Positions 1-61,123 of a stretch of 64,000 bases of DNA are shown piece after piece. The number at the start of each line of letters is the position of its first letter. Positions within the stretch are counted from its first letter, which is position 1. The DNA is from Escherichia coli (lineage in GTDB: Bacteria; Pseudomonadota; Gammaproteobacteria; Enterobacterales; Enterobacteriaceae), in NCBI RefSeq assembly GCF_046105845.1, contig NZ_CP151004.1. The stretch is one strand, 5' to 3'. The notes under the pieces were generated by a model. That model did no database searches and was not told where the DNA came from. It saw nothing but the letters and a program-made list of their open reading frames with translations. The position numbers and the translations under genes were made by a program.

Positions 1-3000
1 GTGGTGTATTCCACATTGTTAATCGTAACGGTAAGCGGCGTGCCTTCAGCCAGCCCCGAGCTACTGCCGCTGACCACCAGCGCCTGCCCGTGCTCGATGA
101 TATTGACCACATCATCGCCTGCCACCGTATCGACCCGCAGACCGGGCAGATTGGCGTCGATGGTGATATCCCGCGTGCCGCTGCCGGTGTTGCCGTTTTG
201 ATTGGTGACCGAGGCGCTCACCGTTAAATCGCCATTACCCAGCGCCTGAATAGCGTCCGCCGGAATGCTCACGCTCCAGCTTAATCCCGGCTGTACGGTG
301 GTGGTGTAGGTATTGCCACCCAGCGTAACGGTTACCGCGTCGCCAACGGCGGCTCCAGTCACCTGCCCGCTGATGGTTTGCGCGACGCCCGCTTCGGCGG
401 CGTTAATAATATCGTCGGTTGCCACCGGGTTAATGGTCACGCCGGGCAGCGCGCTGTCAACCAGCACGTTATGGCTGGCGGTGGCGCTGTTGCCGATATT
501 ACTCGTCACCGCCGCCGTTACCGTGTAGTTGGCCTGGCCCAGTGCGGTTACCGCCGATGCCGGAACGGTGACGCTCCAGTTGCCGGAGGCGTCGGTCGTG
601 GTGGTGTAATTTTGCCCGTTCAGCGTCACGGTGATGGCGGTATTGGCTGGCTGATCGCTGGTACCGGTAATCTGGACATCAGCCCCTTTTTCGCTGGCGT
701 TTATCACATCATCGCCAGCAATGGTGTTAATACCAATTACTGGCGCGGCGGTATTGACCGTGACAGTCAGTGACTGGCTGCCCGTGTTTCCGGCGCGGTC
801 AGTCACTGACACGTTGATCGGATAACTGCCATCCACCAGTCCGCTGACAACGGAAGCCGGAACGCCCAGGCTCCAGTTGCCGGAACCATCCACCACCGTG
901 GTGTAATCCACATTATTCAGCGTCACGGTGACGATATCGCCCGCCTGAGCGCCAGTAACCGTGCCGCTGATGATTTGCGCCTGGGTGTGTTCCGGCGTGT
1001 TGATGACGTTATCGGTCGCCACCGGATTAATGGTTACCACCGGCGGCGTGGCATCGACCAGCGCCACGCGTGAGACGCTGGTCGGGTTACCGGCGATATC
1101 GTTCACGCTGGCGGTGACGGTGGCGTTGCCGTCAGCCAGTGCGCCAACGTTGGCGGCGGGAACGGTCACGCTCCAGGTGCCGTCTGGCTGCACGACGCCC
1201 TGGTACGTCTGCCCGTTCAGCGTCACCGTTACCGTCTGCCCCGGCTGGGCGTCGGTGGTGCCGGTGATTTGCAGATCCTGACCACTTTCGGCGGCGTTAA
1301 TGATGTTATCAGCGGTCAGTGGATCGATACTTAAGGCCGGGGCCTGGCTGTCGACGGTAATGGTGCGAGAGGTGTTGCCGGTATTGCCGCTGAGATCCGT
1401 CACAGAAGCGGTAATCGCCACCGCGCCGTCAGGCAGATTTCCCATCGCGGCGGCAGGTACCGTCAGACTCCAGGAGCCATCAGCCTGCACGGTAGTAGTA
1501 AAACTCTGTCCAGCCAGGGTTACTGTGACGGTTTGTCCTGTCTCGGCCTGTTGAGTGCTACCGGTAAGGGTCAGTGGCGCACCTTTTTCTGCGCCACTGA
1601 TAATGTCATCGCCGGAGACGGTGTTAATGGTGATTAACGGAGAGACACCGACCAGCGTGATTGCTCGAGACGCCGCGCCGGTATTTCCTGCAGTATCTGT
1701 CACGGTGACGAAAATCGTATTGGCTCCGCGATCCAGCGTGCGGGTTACCGCTGGGTCCAGCGCCACATTCCAGCTGCCATCTGCCAGCACAATGCCCGTC
1801 AGGACATGAGTGCCCAATTTCACCGTTACCGTATCGCCAGGAGAAGCACCGCTGACTTGTCCGGAGATGATCTGCGCGACGGCCTGCTCAGCATTATTAA
1901 GAATATCGTCGCCCGCTACGGTATTAACACTGACCACGGGTGCTGAGGTATCTACCGTGAAATTCGCGCTGTGGCTGGTGCTGTTCCCAGCCCGATCGCT
2001 GACACTGGCATTGACAGCGTAATTACCCTCCGCCAGCGCCTGGACTTCCGTGGCTGGCAGCGTCACTTGCCAGGTTCCGTCGCTACCGACGGTTGCTGTA
2101 TGGCTTTTCCCGTTGACGGTCAGTGTTACGGTTTGCCCCGCTTCTGCATTCGACGTGCCGCTCAGTACCAGCGCGACGTTATGTTCCGCAGCACTGATGA
2201 TGTTGTCCTGAGCGATGGTGTTGATGGCAAGCGTTGGCGGTTGGGTATCGACCGTTAAAAGCTGCGCGCCGGTGACCGTATTGCCTGTGGCGTCTTTCCC
2301 GCTGACCAGCACTGCCTGATTCCCTTCGCCTAACGCCTGTGCATCGGCGGTCGGCACCTGCACGCTCCAGGCACCGTTAGCGCCTACGCTGGTGGTGTAG
2401 GTTTTGCCGTTTAGCGTAACGGTGAGTTCTGTTCCCTGCGCCAGATGGCTACTGGTACCAGAAAGCGTAAACCCGGCGGCCTGTTCGCTGGCGTTAATAA
2501 TGTTATCGCCTGCGGTGGTGGCAACCTGCACGCTGGCCTGACTATTGTCGATGGTTAACGTTATCGAACCGGCGTCAGTGATGGTACTGCCGACAATTTG
2601 CACCACTGACCAGGTATGTTCACCTGCACTTTGCGTGGGTAACGAGACACTCCAGTGACCGTTGTTGTCTACCTGAGTACTGGCAATAGTATTGCCGTTA
2701 CTGTCTTTAATCTGAATAGTCGCCCCCGCCTGCCCGCTGCCGCTAAAGGTTGGCGTGGTATCATCGGTGATGTCATTGGTGGCGAGAATGCCGCGCTGAT
2801 CGCCCTGATTATCGATAACTAAAAATGATGGTGTGGCAACACCCGGTTCAGGCACAGGCTCAGCGGGTGGCGTAGGGTTATTAATCACTTCCGTTTTCGA
2901 GTCGCCATCACCACCGCTTGCCAGCAGTGCACCAAGCGCACCACCACCTACCGCCGCCCCCGCCAGCCAACCCCACGGGAAGGCGCTGGTCTGAGCAACG

Positions 3001-7653: not shown

Positions 7654-10158
7654 ATGTCACAAACTATCGACCTGACCCTGGACGGCCTGTCCTGCGGTCA
7701 CTGCGTTAAACGCGTGAAAGAAAGTCTCGAACAGCGCCCGGATGTTGAGCAGGCGGATGTGTCTGTCACTGAAGCGCACGTTACCGGGACTGCCAGTGCA
7801 GAACAGCTGATCGAAACCATCAAACAAGCGGGTTATGACGCATCTGTAAGCCACCCAAAGGCTAAACCGCTGGCGGAGTCATCAATCCCGTCGGAAGCAC
7901 TGACAGCGGTTTCTGAGGCGCTTCCGGCAGCGACCGCCGATGACGATGACAGCCAGCAGTTGCTGCTGAGCGGCATGAGCTGCGCCAGCTGTGTCACCCG
8001 CGTACAAAATGCGCTGCAAAGCGTACCGGGCGTCACTCAGGCACGGGTAAACCTGGCGGAGCGTACTGCGCTGGTGATGGGCAGTGCCTCCCCACAAGAT
8101 TTAGTGCAGGCGGTGGAAAAAGCGGGCTACGGCGCGGAAGCGATTGAAGATGACGCTAAACGCCGCGAGCGCCAGCAAGAAACCGCCGTCGCTACGATGA
8201 AGCGCTTCCGCTGGCAGGCGATTGTCGCACTGGCGGTGGGTATCCCGGTGATGGTCTGGGGGATGATCGGCGATAACATGATGGTCACCGCCGACAACCG
8301 CAGCCTGTGGTTGGTTATCGGCCTGATAACCCTGGCGGTAATGGTTTTCGCCGGCGGGCATTTTTACCGCAGCGCATGGAAAAGCCTGCTGAACGGTGCA
8401 GCGACGATGGATACGCTGGTGGCGCTAGGTACTGGCGTGGCGTGGCTCTATTCGATGAGCGTCAACCTGTGGCCGCAGTGGTTCCCGATGGAAGCGCGAC
8501 ATCTTTATTACGAAGCCAGTGCGATGATTATCGGTTTGATTAATCTCGGCCATATGCTGGAAGCACGCGCACGTCAGCGTTCTTCTAAGGCGCTGGAGAA
8601 ATTACTCGATTTAACCCCACCGACGGCGCGCCTGGTTACTGACGAAGGTGAAAAAAGCGTGCCTCTGGCAGAAGTGCAGCCAGGTATGTTGCTGCGCCTG
8701 ACGACCGGCGATCGCGTGCCGGTAGATGGCGAGATTACCCAGGGCGAAGCATGGCTGGATGAAGCGATGCTGACGGGCGAACCAATCCCGCAGCAAAAAG
8801 GCGAAGGCGATAGCGTCCATGCCGGGACAGTGGTACAGGACGGCAGTGTGCTGTTTCGTGCCAGTGCGGTCGGCAGCCATACTACGCTGTCACGAATCAT
8901 TCGCATGGTGCGCCAGGCCCAGAGCAGCAAGCCTGAAATCGGCCAACTGGCGGATAAAATCTCCGCTGTGTTTGTGCCGGTGGTGGTAGTCATTGCGCTG
9001 GTCAGTGCGGCAATCTGGTATTTCTTTGGCCCGGCACCGCAAATTGTTTATACCCTGGTGATTGCCACCACGGTGCTGATTATCGCCTGTCCGTGTGCGC
9101 TGGGACTGGCGACGCCGATGTCGATTATTTCGGGCGTCGGGCGGGCGGCTGAGTTTGGTGTGCTGGTGCGGGACGCCGACGCGCTGCAACGCGCCAGTAC
9201 GCTCGACACCGTGGTGTTCGATAAAACCGGGACGCTGACCGAAGGGAAGCCGCAGGTTGTCGCAGTAAAAACATTTGCTGATATTGATGAAGCGCAAGCA
9301 TTGCGTCTGGCGGCGGCGCTGGAGCAAGGTTCCAGCCACCCGCTGGCACGGGCGATCCTCGATAAAGCAGGTGATATGCAGCTACCGCAGGTCAACGGTT
9401 TCCGCACATTGCGCGGGCTGGGTGTGAGCGGTGAAGCTGAAGGTCATGCGGTATTGCTGGGCAATCAGGCGCTGTTAAATGACCAGCAAGTTGATACTAA
9501 AGCGATTGAGGCAGATATTTCAGCTCAGGCATCGCAAGGGGCAACGCCTGTGCTGCTGGCGGTTGACGGGAAAGCGGTGGCCTTGCTGGCAGTACGCGAT
9601 CCGTTGCGTAACGATAGCGTGGCGGCGCTGCAACGTCTGCATAAAGCGGGATATCGTCTGGTGATGTTGACCGGGGATAACCCAACCACCGCCAATGCGA
9701 TCGCCAAAGAAGCAGGGATTGATGAGGTGATCGCCGGGGTGCTGCCGGACGGTAAAGCCGAAGCGATCAAACGTCTGCAAAGTGAAGGACGTCAGGTGGC
9801 AATGGTGGGCGACGGCATTAACGACGCGCCAGCGCTGGCCCAGGCGGATGTCGGTATTGCGATGGGTGGCGGCAGTGATGTTGCCATTGAAACCGCGGCG
9901 ATTACCCTGATGCGCCATAGCCTGATGGGTGTTGCAGATGCGCTCGCGATTTCCCGCGCAACGCTGCGCAATATGAAGCAGAACCTGCTCGGTGCGTTTA
10001 TCTACAACAGCATTGGTATTCCGGTCGCCGCCGGTATTTTGTGGCCGTTCACTGGAACACTGCTTAACCCGGTGGTTGCCGGAGCGGCAATGGCGCTATC
10101 GTCGATTACCGTAGTGAGTAACGCCAACCGGTTACTGCGGTTTAAACCGAAAGAGTGA
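7654..10158 (+). CDS. copA: Cu(I)-translocating P-type ATPase
   Basis: 834-aa ORF with two N-terminal GMSCxxC metal-binding domains, CPC and DKTGT motifs. Confidence 0.96.
7854..7860 (+). other. copA: Programmed -1 ribosomal frameshift site in copA (slippery heptamer C CCA AAG) giving the CopA(Z) chaperone
   Basis: CCCAAAG lies in the 0 frame at codons 67-69; the -1 frame reads CCC AAA GGC TAA, terminating after ~70 aa. Confidence 0.7.
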
Positions 10159-10234
10159 TTGGTATTTACTTAATGCGTTTGTGAGATCCAGTTCTTGTTG
10201 CGCTCCTTTTATGAGTAATGCCATATAAAGTGAC

Positions 10235-10560
10235 TGGCGCAGGGAGCGCGCAGGGGGCGGCCAATCGCCGCCGCCCCCTGCCCCCCCGGGCTCTGGCGAA
10301 CAAAATCGCCGCTGCGCGGTACCCTCAGCTTATCCCTTGCGGCTACCGGGTCGGGCGCGAGGTAACATCCCTGTAAAACGCGCCCTCAGCCCACATCCAT
10401 GTGGGCTGCCCCGGCCTTCAGGGAACGCCTCGGCGATTTTGACGCCACCAACACCGGTGCAGTCTTTCGTTTCAAAGCAAAAACAATTTTTCGATCATAT
10501 TTAAGCTACCACTGAACAAGCCTCATAACTCCATTTGCGCCATCCCTCCCTGCGCGCTAG
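10235..10560. repeat. GC-rich intergenic element with nested inverted repeats, unknown function
   Basis: 10-bp inverted repeat gcgcagggag (10237-10246) / ctccctgcgc (10546-10555); inner inverted repeat aaaatcgccg (10302-10311) / cggcgatttt (10431-10440); perfect 11-bp GC stem 10251-10261 / 10270-10280; hairpin 10388-10407. No ORF of 60 aa or more. Confidence 0.4.
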
Positions 10561-10586
10561 CATGATATTTCACAAAGGGAGGTCGT

Positions 10587-11381
10587 ATGGATCTGTTGTA
10601 CCGGGTAAAAACGCTTTGGGCCGCGCTGCGCGGTAATCATTACACCTGGCCTGCTATCGATATCTCTCTTCCCGGCAATCGCCATTTTCATCTGCTCGGC
10701 AGTATTCATATGGGTAGCCACGATATGGCTCCCCTGCCCACCCGTTTGCTCAAAAAGCTCAAAAACGCCGATGCGCTGATCGTCGAGGCGGATGTTTCCA
10801 CCAGCGATACGCCTTTTGCTAATTTGCCTGCCTGCGAGGCGCTGGAAGAGCGCATTAGCGAGGAGCAACTCCAAAACCTGCAGCACATTAGCCAGGAGAT
10901 GGGCATTTCTACCTCACTCTTTTCTACCCAACCGCTGTGGCAAATCGCGATGGTTCTTCAGGCGACACAGGCGCAAAAACTGGGGCTGCGGGCAGAGTAT
11001 GGTATCGATTACCAGCTATTGCAGGCGGCGAAGCAACAACATAAATCCGTGATTGAACTGGAAGGGGCAGAAAACCAGATTGCCATGTTGCTCCAGCTCC
11101 CTGACAACGGACTGGCGCTGCTGGACGATACGCTGACCCACTGGCACACCAATGCACGGTTGCTGCAACAAATGATGAGCTGGTGGCTGAACACGCCGCC
11201 GCAAAATAATGAAATAACGCTGCCTAATACGTTCAGTCAGTCGCTGTACGATGTGTTGATGCATCAGCGAAATCTCGCCTGGCGGGATAAATTACGCGCC
11301 ATGCCGCCGGGGCGATATGTGGTCGCGGTCGGTGCACTACACCTGTATGGAGAAGGGAATTTACCGCAAATGTTGCGCTAA
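10587..11381 (+). CDS. ybaP: TraB-family protein YbaP
   Basis: 264-aa ORF matching recalled YbaP. Confidence 0.9.
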   Translation: MDLLYRVKTLWAALRGNHYTWPAIDISLPGNRHFHLLGSIHMGSHDMAPLPTRLLKKLKNADALIVEADVSTSDTPFANLPACEALEERISEEQLQNLQHISQEMGISTSLFSTQPLWQIAMVLQATQAQKLGLRAEYGIDYQLLQAAKQQHKSVIELEGAENQIAMLLQLPDNGLALLDDTLTHWHTNARLLQQMMSWWLNTPPQNNEITLPNTFSQSLYDVLMHQRNLAWRDKLRAMPPGRYVVAVGALHLYGEGNLPQMLR

Positions 11382-11463
11382 AAAAATGGCCAATATCGCT
11401 ATTGGCCCGTCAAAGAGGAATTTCATTTTTTTATTATTATGCCGTCACTTTAAGCGACGGTGT
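11381..11463 (-). ncRNA. chiX: ChiX (MicM/SroB) Hfq-dependent sRNA
   Basis: Minus strand reads ACACCGTCGCTTAAAGTGACGGCATAATAATAAAAAAATGAAATTCCTCTTTGACGGGCCAATAGCGATATTGGCCATTTTTTT, matching recalled ChiX including terminator hairpin and U-tract; in the ybaK-ybaP intergenic region as in K-12. Confidence 0.85.
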
Positions 11464-11569
11464 AACTCGATTGTCGCTCAATCTCACCATCCTGCCAATA
11501 CTCTTAGGCAAGATGACTCTTTTTTTTGGACCGCCATCAGGCGTATGCTTGCTTCGTTTTTTTGTTTAA

Positions 11570-12064
<495 letters not shown>

Positions 12065-25970: not shown

Positions 25971-27902
25971 TCAAATGGGGCGGATACTTTCTTCATCCAG
26001 CTCCGCATCGAAGAACCGACGCAGGGTCTGAATATTATTATCCGCAATAATGGACTCGCGCGCCTGCGCAAGTTTTTCTTCGTATATCGCCTGACGCCAT
26101 TCCAGCGGCGTACGCACCGCGGGATTATCATCTTCAACGATAGTCAGTTCAACCGTTGAACCTTTTAACGTGCTCAACGCTTCAGCCAGTTTTTGCTGTG
26201 CACCGCGGTTGTTCAAATGCCGCTGAGAGGAGCGCAAATGCAGACATACTGCGTTGTCGCTCTCCTCTTTCCAGGCATTTAGCGCCACCTGTTCGACCAG
26301 TTTTGGTAGCGAAAGTTGGCTCACCTGTGCCGCCCACGGGTCGCGCTCAATGGCTTCTGCCGCCAGCTTCGCCGCCAGTTCCGGCGTTTTTTCATGTTCC
26401 AGCGCTTTTTTTAGCGCCTTCGGCGTGGCGACCACTTCTTTTTGCTGCATCACTGGAGTGGTGGCCTTCCAGCGATACGCTTCTTTTTTGGCTGGCGCTT
26501 TTTCCAGCGCCGATGGCACCGGGCGCGCCTGAACGCGATCGGTGACCGAAGCCAGTCTTTCCAGCGCAGCGTTATTCACCGGCCGCGCGCGGGTAGCGGC
26601 TGCCGGTTCACTCTTTTTTGCTTTGGTTGCTCCCTGCACGCGCTGCAACTGCTGGCGCGCCGCCAGCACCTGGCTGGTGGTTTCCGGGAGCGGTACAGTC
26701 GGTGCCTGCTGCGGCGCTGATTGCGGTTGCGGCGGCACCTGTGTTGGCGTCATTACTGCCGTTGGCGCGACGGGCGCAAAGGACTGGCGTGGCACTTCTG
26801 GCTCAGGCAGCGGCATACGCGGATGGAACGCCAGCGCGCGAAGCAGCGTCATCTCAACGCCCATACGGCGGTCTGGCGCATACGGTAATTCTTTGCGACC
26901 AATCAACAGCGTCTGATAGTAAAGCTGAATATCCGTCGGCGGTATGGTGCGCGCCAGTTCACGCATCCGCAGCTCGATGGCAGCCATGTCGTTGCCAAGT
27001 GCAGCAGGCGAAAGTTGTACCATCGCAATACGATGCAACAGACCGAGCATTTCCACCAGCAACGCTTCCCACTCGATACCACGGGCAGCGGCTTCATTAA
27101 TCAGCGCCATTACGCGCTCGCCGTTGGCCTCGACCATCGCTTCAACCAGCGACAGCGCCTGATCGTCGTCAAGCGTACCCAGCATCGCACTGACCGCCTG
27201 AGTTGAAACCTGGCCGTCACCGCTGGCAATCGCCTGGTCGGTCAGACTTAAGGCATCTCGCAGGCTGCCTTCAGCGGCGCGTGCCAGCAATTGCAGCGCC
27301 CGCGGCTCGTGAGCGATATGTTCTTCGTTGAGGATGTGCTCAAGCTGATGGCGAATTTGCTCGACATCCAGCGCCTTGAGATGAAATTGCAGACAACGTG
27401 ACAAAATCGTCACCGGCAATTTCTGCGGATCGGTCGTCGCCAGCAGAAACTTAACGTGCTCCGGCGGCTCTTCAAGGGTTTTTAACAGTGCGTTAAAGCT
27501 GTGGCGCGACAGCATATGCACTTCGTCGATCAAATAAACTTTGAAACGACCACGCGCCGGAGCGTACTGGACGTTATCCAGCAGGTCGCGGGTATCTTCA
27601 ACTTTGGTGCGCGAGGCGGCGTCGATTTCAATCAGATCGACAAAGCGCCCCTGCTCGATTTCACGACAGTTATCGCACACGCCGCACGGCGTCGCGGTAA
27701 TGCCGGTTTCGCAGTTTAGCCCCTTCGCCAGCAGTCGGGCGATAGAGGTTTTTCCGACGCCACGGGTACCGGAAAAAAGATAAGCATGATGAATACGCCC
27801 TAACGACAAGCCGTTCGCCAGTGCGGTCAGCACATGTTCCTGGCCGACGACGTCAGCAAAGGTTTGTGGGCGCCATTTTCGGGCTAAGACCTGATAACTC
27901 AT
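25971..27902 (-). CDS. dnaX: DNA polymerase III subunits tau and gamma
   Basis: 643-aa ORF with AAA+ motifs (GTRGVGKT) and internal frameshift site. Confidence 0.97.
   Translation of the reverse strand: MSYQVLARKWRPQTFADVVGQEHVLTALANGLSLGRIHHAYLFSGTRGVGKTSIARLLAKGLNCETGITATPCGVCDNCREIEQGRFVDLIEIDAASRTKVEDTRDLLDNVQYAPARGRFKVYLIDEVHMLSRHSFNALLKTLEEPPEHVKFLLATTDPQKLPVTILSRCLQFHLKALDVEQIRHQLEHILNEEHIAHEPRALQLLARAAEGSLRDALSLTDQAIASGDGQVSTQAVSAMLGTLDDDQALSLVEAMVEANGERVMALINEAAARGIEWEALLVEMLGLLHRIAMVQLSPAALGNDMAAIELRMRELARTIPPTDIQLYYQTLLIGRKELPYAPDRRMGVEMTLLRALAFHPRMPLPEPEVPRQSFAPVAPTAVMTPTQVPPQPQSAPQQAPTVPLPETTSQVLAARQQLQRVQGATKAKKSEPAAATRARPVNNAALERLASVTDRVQARPVPSALEKAPAKKEAYRWKATTPVMQQKEVVATPKALKKALEHEKTPELAAKLAAEAIERDPWAAQVSQLSLPKLVEQVALNAWKEESDNAVCLHLRSSQRHLNNRGAQQKLAEALSTLKGSTVELTIVEDDNPAVRTPLEWRQAIYEEKLAQARESIIADNNIQTLRRFFDAELDEESIRPI
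26613..26619 (-). other. dnaX: dnaX programmed -1 frameshift site (A AAA AAG) producing gamma
   Basis: Minus strand reads GCAGGGAGCAACCAAAGCAAAAAAGAGTGAACCGGCAGCC...: SD-like AGGGAG upstream, heptamer, then a stem-loop; the -1 frame stops at GAG TGA. Confidence 0.85.
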
Positions 27903-43262: not shown

Positions 43263-43376
43263 GGGTGGGGGCCCTGCCAGCTACATCCCGGCACACGCGT
43301 CATCTGCCTTGGCTGCTTCCTTCCGGACCTGACCTGGTAAACAGAGTAGCGTTGCGGGAGAACCAACAGAGCCCCC
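43263..43376 (-). ncRNA. ffs: 4.5S RNA (signal recognition particle RNA)
   Basis: Minus strand reads GGGGGCTCTGTTGGTTCTCCCGCAACGCTACTCTGTTTACCAGGTCAGGTCCGGAAGGAAGCAGCCAAGGCAGATGACGCGTGTGCCGGGATGTAGCTGGCAGGGCCCCCACCC, matching recalled 114-nt ffs. Confidence 0.95.
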
Positions 43377-60936: not shown

Positions 60937-61018
60937 AGAGCTCTCTCTTAGTTTAATTTCCGCCAGGTAATCAGATGACACGACTGTGCTTCACGCCATC
61001 TATTAACATGTACGTCAG

Positions 61019-61046
61019 TATATGGGGATGTTTCCCCCACATTCAA
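61019..61046 (-). promoter_or_regulatory. Heat-shock (sigma32-type) promoter of lon
   Basis: Minus strand reads TTGAAT (-35), 13-nt spacer, CCCCATATA (-10). Confidence 0.55.
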
Positions 61047-61123
61047 CGCCGAGAATAGAGGAAAAATTAAAGGGGAGATAAAATCCCCCCTTTTTGGTTA
61101 ACTAATTGTATGGGAATGGTTAA

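Follow-up and report, generated by a model that had tools for sequence, protein, structure and literature searches.

The minus strand of the window, by which we mean the whole 64-kb stretch of Escherichia coli DNA that was analyzed, almost certainly carries at positions 11380..11463 the gene chiX (sroB/rybC/micM), which would encode the 84-nt Hfq-dependent, trans-acting small RNA (sRNA) ChiX; SroB, RybC, MicM and ChiX are names of one RNA (PMC4098024; PMC5006887). This identity, proposed in the original prediction from the letters of the DNA, is borne out by both a family model and a curated gene. In an Rfam 15 scan of the whole window at the gathering threshold, the family RF00368 (sroB) matched 11463..11380 (-) over its full length (model positions 1-83 of 83) with 82.1 bits and an E-value of 1.8e-10, well above its gathering score of 44. 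Direct alignment to the chiX gene of E. coli K-12 (b4585; NC_000913.3 507204..507287) gave 84 identical positions out of 84, and what had been described as a near-exact match is in fact an exact one. The minus-strand sequence from 11463 to 11380 is ACACCGUCGCUUAAAGUGACGGCAUAAUAAUAAAAAAAUGAAAUUCCUCUUUGACGGGCCAAUAGCGAUAUUGGCCAUUUUUUU. The identity continues beyond the RNA: the roughly 120 nt upstream of chiX, with the promoter and the whole spacer toward ybaK, are the same as in K-12, and the first mismatch is a synonymous-looking T/C difference within ybaP. There is thus no significant divergence from K-12 chiX. Our own covariance model (R1) returned a single match in the window, with 104.5 bits. 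A chance match is excluded by the Rfam E-value, the complete agreement with a curated gene and the single R1 match taken together.

Every sequence-level property of ChiX and RF00368 that was tested was found here, namely model score, identity to b4585, synteny, architecture, complementarity to chiP and chb, and class II Hfq motifs, and no sequence evidence against a ChiX identity was found in the window segment. The gene is therefore best regarded as one already known, neither a new member of the family nor a variant. Of 5,426 complete E. coli genomes, 5,422 contain the 84-mer, each in a single copy, and in 5,011 of them the identity is at least 99%.

The gene lies between ybaP (10587..11381 (+), TraB/GumN family, 264 aa), which is convergent with it, and ybaK (11585..12064 (+), Cys-tRNA(Pro)/Cys-tRNA(Cys) deacylase, 159 aa), which is divergent from it. 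The reading frame of ybaP is in the ORF list and in the RefSeq annotation; a search of the YbaP protein against NCBIfam returned no family, and its identity comes from the RefSeq and K-12 annotation of near-identical DNA. YbaK is assigned by the K-12 annotation and by the NCBIfam equivalog NF007951 (329.9 bits, cut-off 243). The predicted ybaP-ybaK intergenic location is thus supported by the RefSeq annotation of matching records and by the YbaK equivalog. The curated K-12 record likewise places chiX b4585 between ybaK (b0481) and ybaP (b0482), with a 2-nt overlap with the 3' end of ybaP, and Salmonella ChiX is also found between ybaK and ybaP (PMC3384567). UshA and CopA flank the locus as in K-12.

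In position and orientation, promoter, seed, AAN linker and terminator the window gene is the same as ChiX of K-12 (RF00368), without any difference in the RNA or its promoter, whereas the strain background differs. Identity to K-12 falls to 97-98% in the DNA flanking chiX, and the neighborhood lacks ybaQ; the strain is therefore not K-12-like. Set against neighboring coding DNA that has diverged by 2-3%, chiX and its promoter are 100% conserved.

The 5' end at 11463 agrees with the original prediction, while the 3' end is 11380 and not 11381, one base beyond the proposed span, since the seven-U tract that the prediction itself named requires it. Nor does the tail merely abut the ybaP stop codon, as had been claimed: the last two U of the ChiX tail (11380..11386) share 2 nt with the TAA of ybaP (11379..11381).

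Folding, a terminator scan and covariation together revealed a two-hairpin architecture, consisting of a 5' stem-loop, a single-stranded linker with the seed, and a terminator stem-loop with a U-tail (RNA positions are numbered so that the window coordinate equals 11464 minus the RNA position). The RNA folds with -24.1 kcal/mol (z = -3.9 against dinucleotide shuffles). A 5' hairpin of 8 bp, CCGUCGCU-UAA-AGUGACGG, appears in both the minimum-free-energy and the centroid fold at 11442..11460 (-), nt 4-22. It is followed by an unstructured A/U-rich linker (11420..11441 (-), nt 23-44) that contains four consecutive AAN triplets, and by the seed UCCUCUUUGACG (11408..11419 (-), nt 45-56), the complement of the chiP leader. 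The Rho-independent terminator called by the scan occupies 11380..11407 (-); its 8-bp stem GGCCAAUA/UAUUGGCC with the loop GCGA (11407..11388, nt 57-76) precedes an A and U7 (11386..11380), so that the GC hairpin and U7 tract reported for the minus strand are indeed present. Upstream, a consensus scan located a sigma-70-like promoter at 11470..11498 (-), with a -35 box TTGGCA (11498..11493), a 17-nt spacer and a -10 box GACAAT (11475..11470). The annotated ChiX 5' end at 11463 is the 7th nucleotide past the -10 box, and we infer that this TTGGCA-17-GACAAT element is active as a promoter.

We recruited homologues by a plain-pattern scan of species-representative genomes with a 19-base Rfam-invariant core, AAATTCCTCTTTGACNGGCC, which yielded at least 120 loci spanning Escherichia, Citrobacter, Klebsiella, Enterobacter, Kluyvera, Serratia, Yersinia, Rahnella, Pantoea, Erwinia, Hafnia, Proteus and others. 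Among the matches listed, the upstream divergent ybaK and the downstream convergent ybaP both flank the core in 108 of 120 loci, and most of the others are cut by locus ends. One match, in a Candidatus Lindowbacteria metagenome-assembled genome (L061), was rejected as a chance match to the 19-base pattern, having no ybaK, ybaP, U-tail or covariance-model match. In Proteus-type loci (L066, Proteus faecis, at about 9456..9533; L092 at about 609..670), a ChiX-like seed and terminator are accompanied by another 5' hairpin; here ybaP and ybaK are neighbors, and the element is 1.5-1.9 kb away from the pair and not between both genes.

Over about 100 Enterobacterales species, among the matches listed, the seed and terminator hardly change, and the sequence of the 5' hairpin varies by genus with its pairing kept. 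The element AAATTCCTCTTTGAC is invariant in an alignment of 107 sequences (among the matches listed), but it is also the search pattern, and because the seed sequence served to recruit the set, seed invariance within it is partly circular. TTGGCA and TTTGAGCGACAAT are kept in the Enterobacteriaceae homologues. Homologues outside Enterobacteriaceae sensu stricto (Serratia, Yersinia and Rahnella; L008, L013, L016, L019, L020, L024, L034, L035 and others) are without TTGGCA/GACAAT and share the upstream motif GTTGCTACCCTGT, which suggests that the same module of seed and terminator is controlled differently at the level of transcription.

Alignment by MAFFT followed by RNAalifold, for all 107 homologues or for the 63 that share the GACAAT promoter, recovered the terminator helix only and did not register the 5' hairpin; such sequence-only alignments miss it because variable loop lengths shift its 5' arm. 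The covariance model R1 was therefore built from 14 Escherichia/Citrobacter-type sequences, and 99 matches were realigned to it. The resulting alignment is fitted to the structure of the model and favors that structure, a bias that the fold test and the slid-partner controls lessen without removing. In this alignment 95.0% of cells are standard pairs, compared with 80.3% in shuffles and 20-50% with slid partners. Helix 1, the 5' hairpin, shows changes on both sides at all eight of its pairs, with 89.7% of cells paired (97 distinct homologues, among the matches listed); helix 2, the terminator, has 99.4% of cells paired and both-side changes from A-U to G-C at 3 pairs. In the alignment-free fold, 89% of 107 distinct homologues (among the matches listed) form a hairpin with a dG of at most -5 kcal/mol within the 34 nt before the linker.

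These patterns bear on two explanations that would dispense with an RNA gene. According to the first, the hairpin and T-run are only a terminator, possibly bidirectional, of the convergent ybaP. Such a reading would account for the overlap of the ybaP stop with the T-run, whose exact 2-nt form is kept in 88 of 111 loci (1-2 nt in 92 of 111; among the Enterobacterales loci listed, L004-L123), and the hairpin, being palindromic, also forms on the plus strand. What follows it on that strand, however, is CGTCAAAGAGG instead of a T-run, and the scan detected no plus-strand terminator at this place. Moreover, conservation in the 45 nt before the hairpin, which hold the seed and the AAN linker, equals that of the hairpin. 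Ahead of them come the covarying 5' hairpin and the conserved promoter, and a terminator requires none of these. The identical K-12 sequence, finally, is a curated ncRNA with published targets. We consider the probability of a mere ybaP terminator to be negligible.

According to the second explanation, the region codes for protein as part of a 94-aa ORF at 11317..11601 (+) that runs antisense through chiX and does appear in the mechanical ORF list. This ORF overlaps the 3' end of ybaP and extends into the start of ybaK, and it is annotated neither in the curated K-12 record nor in PGAP records. In Enterobacteriaceae the homologous segment measures 77-87 nt, with lengths in all three mod-3 classes (24, 21 and 18 sequences, among the matches listed), and the conservation follows paired helices, not codons. 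With no reading frame preserved among the homologues, the ORF was rejected as coding, and there is hardly any chance that the segment belongs to a protein-coding gene. The reading as chiX, by comparison, is in line with what is known: the seed is invariant, the 5' hairpin covaries and the overlap with the ybaP stop is conserved, all of which agrees with the known biology of this RNA and poses no challenge to it.

The arrangement of stop codon and U-tail varies far less among these loci than does the YbaP protein, whose identity spans 53-97% (among the matches listed). A plus-strand terminator scan downstream of ybaP found none before 11538..11551; transcripts of ybaP could therefore run antisense through chiX. 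It is conceivable, if rather unlikely, that the conserved overlap reflects more than compaction, and that read-through from ybaP would yield an RNA antisense to the whole of ChiX, with an effect as a cis-encoded sponge or through transcriptional interference. If this were true, ChiX levels would be linked to ybaP expression. Our literature search found no paper on the overlap of the ybaP stop with the ChiX U-tail or on ybaP-ChiX coupling; one RIL-seq study merely relabels 'ybaP.EST3UTR' as ChiX. The terminator-like site consists of a hairpin, CAGGCGTATGCTTG, followed by CTTCGTTTTT, and occupies 11538..11561 (+), some 25 nt ahead of the start codon of ybaK.

ChiX has been described as a class II sRNA with four AAN motifs that binds both the proximal and the distal face of Hfq (PMC7987339). 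Both class II motifs are present in the window gene: the U7 tract at 11386..11380, and the four triplets AAU-AAU-AAA-AAA at nt 26-37 (11438..11427), which correspond to the distal-face motif of class II sRNAs. This ChiX would thus be expected to bind Hfq with its U-tail on the proximal face and its AAN repeats on the distal face. Among the matches listed, a run of at least three ARN triplets occurs at the linker in 57 of 99 homologues and of at least two in 95 of 99. MgrR, the other well-studied class II sRNA, shares this mode of binding through a proximal U-tail and distal A-rich repeats (PMC7987339, PMC6239178), but its sequence, locus, regulator and targets are unrelated and it gave no sequence or family match here, so that it is a mechanistic analogue only. 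The A7 of the linker at 11427..11433 (nt 31-37) is uninterrupted in the window and in K-12 (UAAAAAAAUG). In E. albertii and three other Escherichia representatives (L005, L036, L108, L113) the corresponding sequence is UAAAAAUAUG, a single-base difference within the AAN/Hfq distal-face region.

It has been reported that ChiX is constitutive and represses the chitoporin mRNA chiP, and that chitobiose induces the chb operon, whose transcript forms base pairs with ChiX; ChiX is thereby titrated and its decay promoted, with the result that chiP is de-repressed (PMC4098024; PMC5006887). Pairing was computed against the chiP and chb sequences of K-12, the loci of this strain lying outside the window. 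Full-length ChiX in RNAduplex gave -38.8 and -37.8 kcal/mol against the chiP and chb leaders, respectively; these duplexes were over-extended with long interior loops, and 10 of 500 and 2 of 500 shuffles did as well, so that the values discriminate poorly and were replaced by those of a linker-restricted duplex together with the longest Watson-Crick run. By this procedure the seed forms a perfect 12-nt Watson-Crick run with the K-12 chiP (ybfM) leader, CGUCAAAGAGGA, at -21.0 kcal/mol. The run lies 8-19 nt upstream of the ATG and therefore covers the Shine-Dalgarno sequence. With the K-12 chbB-chbC spacer, nt 47-58 and nt 38-44 form 12+7 bp at -25.0 kcal/mol, the spacer sites that pair with ChiX being CCCGUCAAAGAG..AUUUCA. 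The 5' leader of chiP also corresponds to a K-12 sRNA, chiZ (b4808; L002 3237..3334, K-12 708236..708333), which holds the ChiX target site at L002 3316..3327.

Since neither the RNA nor its promoter differs from K-12, we infer that the properties described for K-12 and Salmonella ChiX carry over to this strain, including a discrete transcript of about 84 nt and the repression of chiP. Constitutively made ChiX would pair its seed with the chiP Shine-Dalgarno sequence and silence the chitoporin in the absence of chitosugars. Upon induction by chitobiose, the chbB-chbC spacer would act as a decoy that pairs with ChiX, leading to ChiX decay and de-repression of chiP. The presence of ChiX thus predicts the standard chitosugar-uptake circuit in this strain; the RNA is a textbook case of an sRNA that silences a porin gene, is controlled by an mRNA decoy and binds Hfq in the class II mode. 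In the pair formed by GcvB and its mRNA-derived sponge SroC, a competing transcript likewise pairs with the seed and thereby sets the activity of the sRNA, a part that the chbBC spacer plays for ChiX (PMC4098024). The RNAs and the regulons are others, and ChiX has as its decoy a spacer inside a polycistronic mRNA.

A genuine chiX gene could also sit in a broken circuit, for example if chiP or chb were lost or mutated in this strain, in which case ChiX would mainly compete for Hfq or act on other targets. The location of chiP and chb beyond the 64-kb window and the background unlike K-12 leave room for this, and overexpressed ChiX is reported to titrate Hfq (PMC5006887; PMC7987339). On the other hand, the full conservation of chiX and its promoter amid diverged neighbors argues for continued selection, and no sign of target loss was found in the 64 kb covered. 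We regard a broken circuit as very unlikely, and an intact chiX serving the standard circuit remains the favored reading.

The original prediction had noted that an RNA gene would be invisible to the ORF track, and PGAP-annotated RefSeq E. coli records that match the 1 kb around the gene do show ybaP and ybaK only at this place. Automated PGAP records (RefSeq E. coli H1-H27) leave chiX unmarked, whereas the curated K-12 record annotates it; under automated annotation the gene would be unmarked in thousands of E. coli genomes. The significance of the present case beyond annotation is small, and lies in a known sRNA being recognizable from raw sequence without tools.

Several further observations concern the surroundings of the gene. 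In K-12, ybaQ (b0483, an HTH regulator) is situated between ybaP and copA, and it is absent in the window. The copA-ybaP spacer here, 10159..10586, comprises 428 nt and contains a palindromic, GC-rich repeat with 2-8 matching places in each E. coli genome. This ybaQ-less copA-ybaP arrangement was found at a query coverage of at least 80% in 346 of 5,426 E. coli genomes, the best match being 99.6%, in swine ETEC strains. Elsewhere in the window, Rfam matches above the gathering score were obtained for the sraA sRNA (61008..61103 (+), 106.7 bits), the dnaX programmed frameshift element (26574..26638 (-), 96.8 bits) and the 4.5S/SRP RNA (43272..43368 (-), 68.1 bits).
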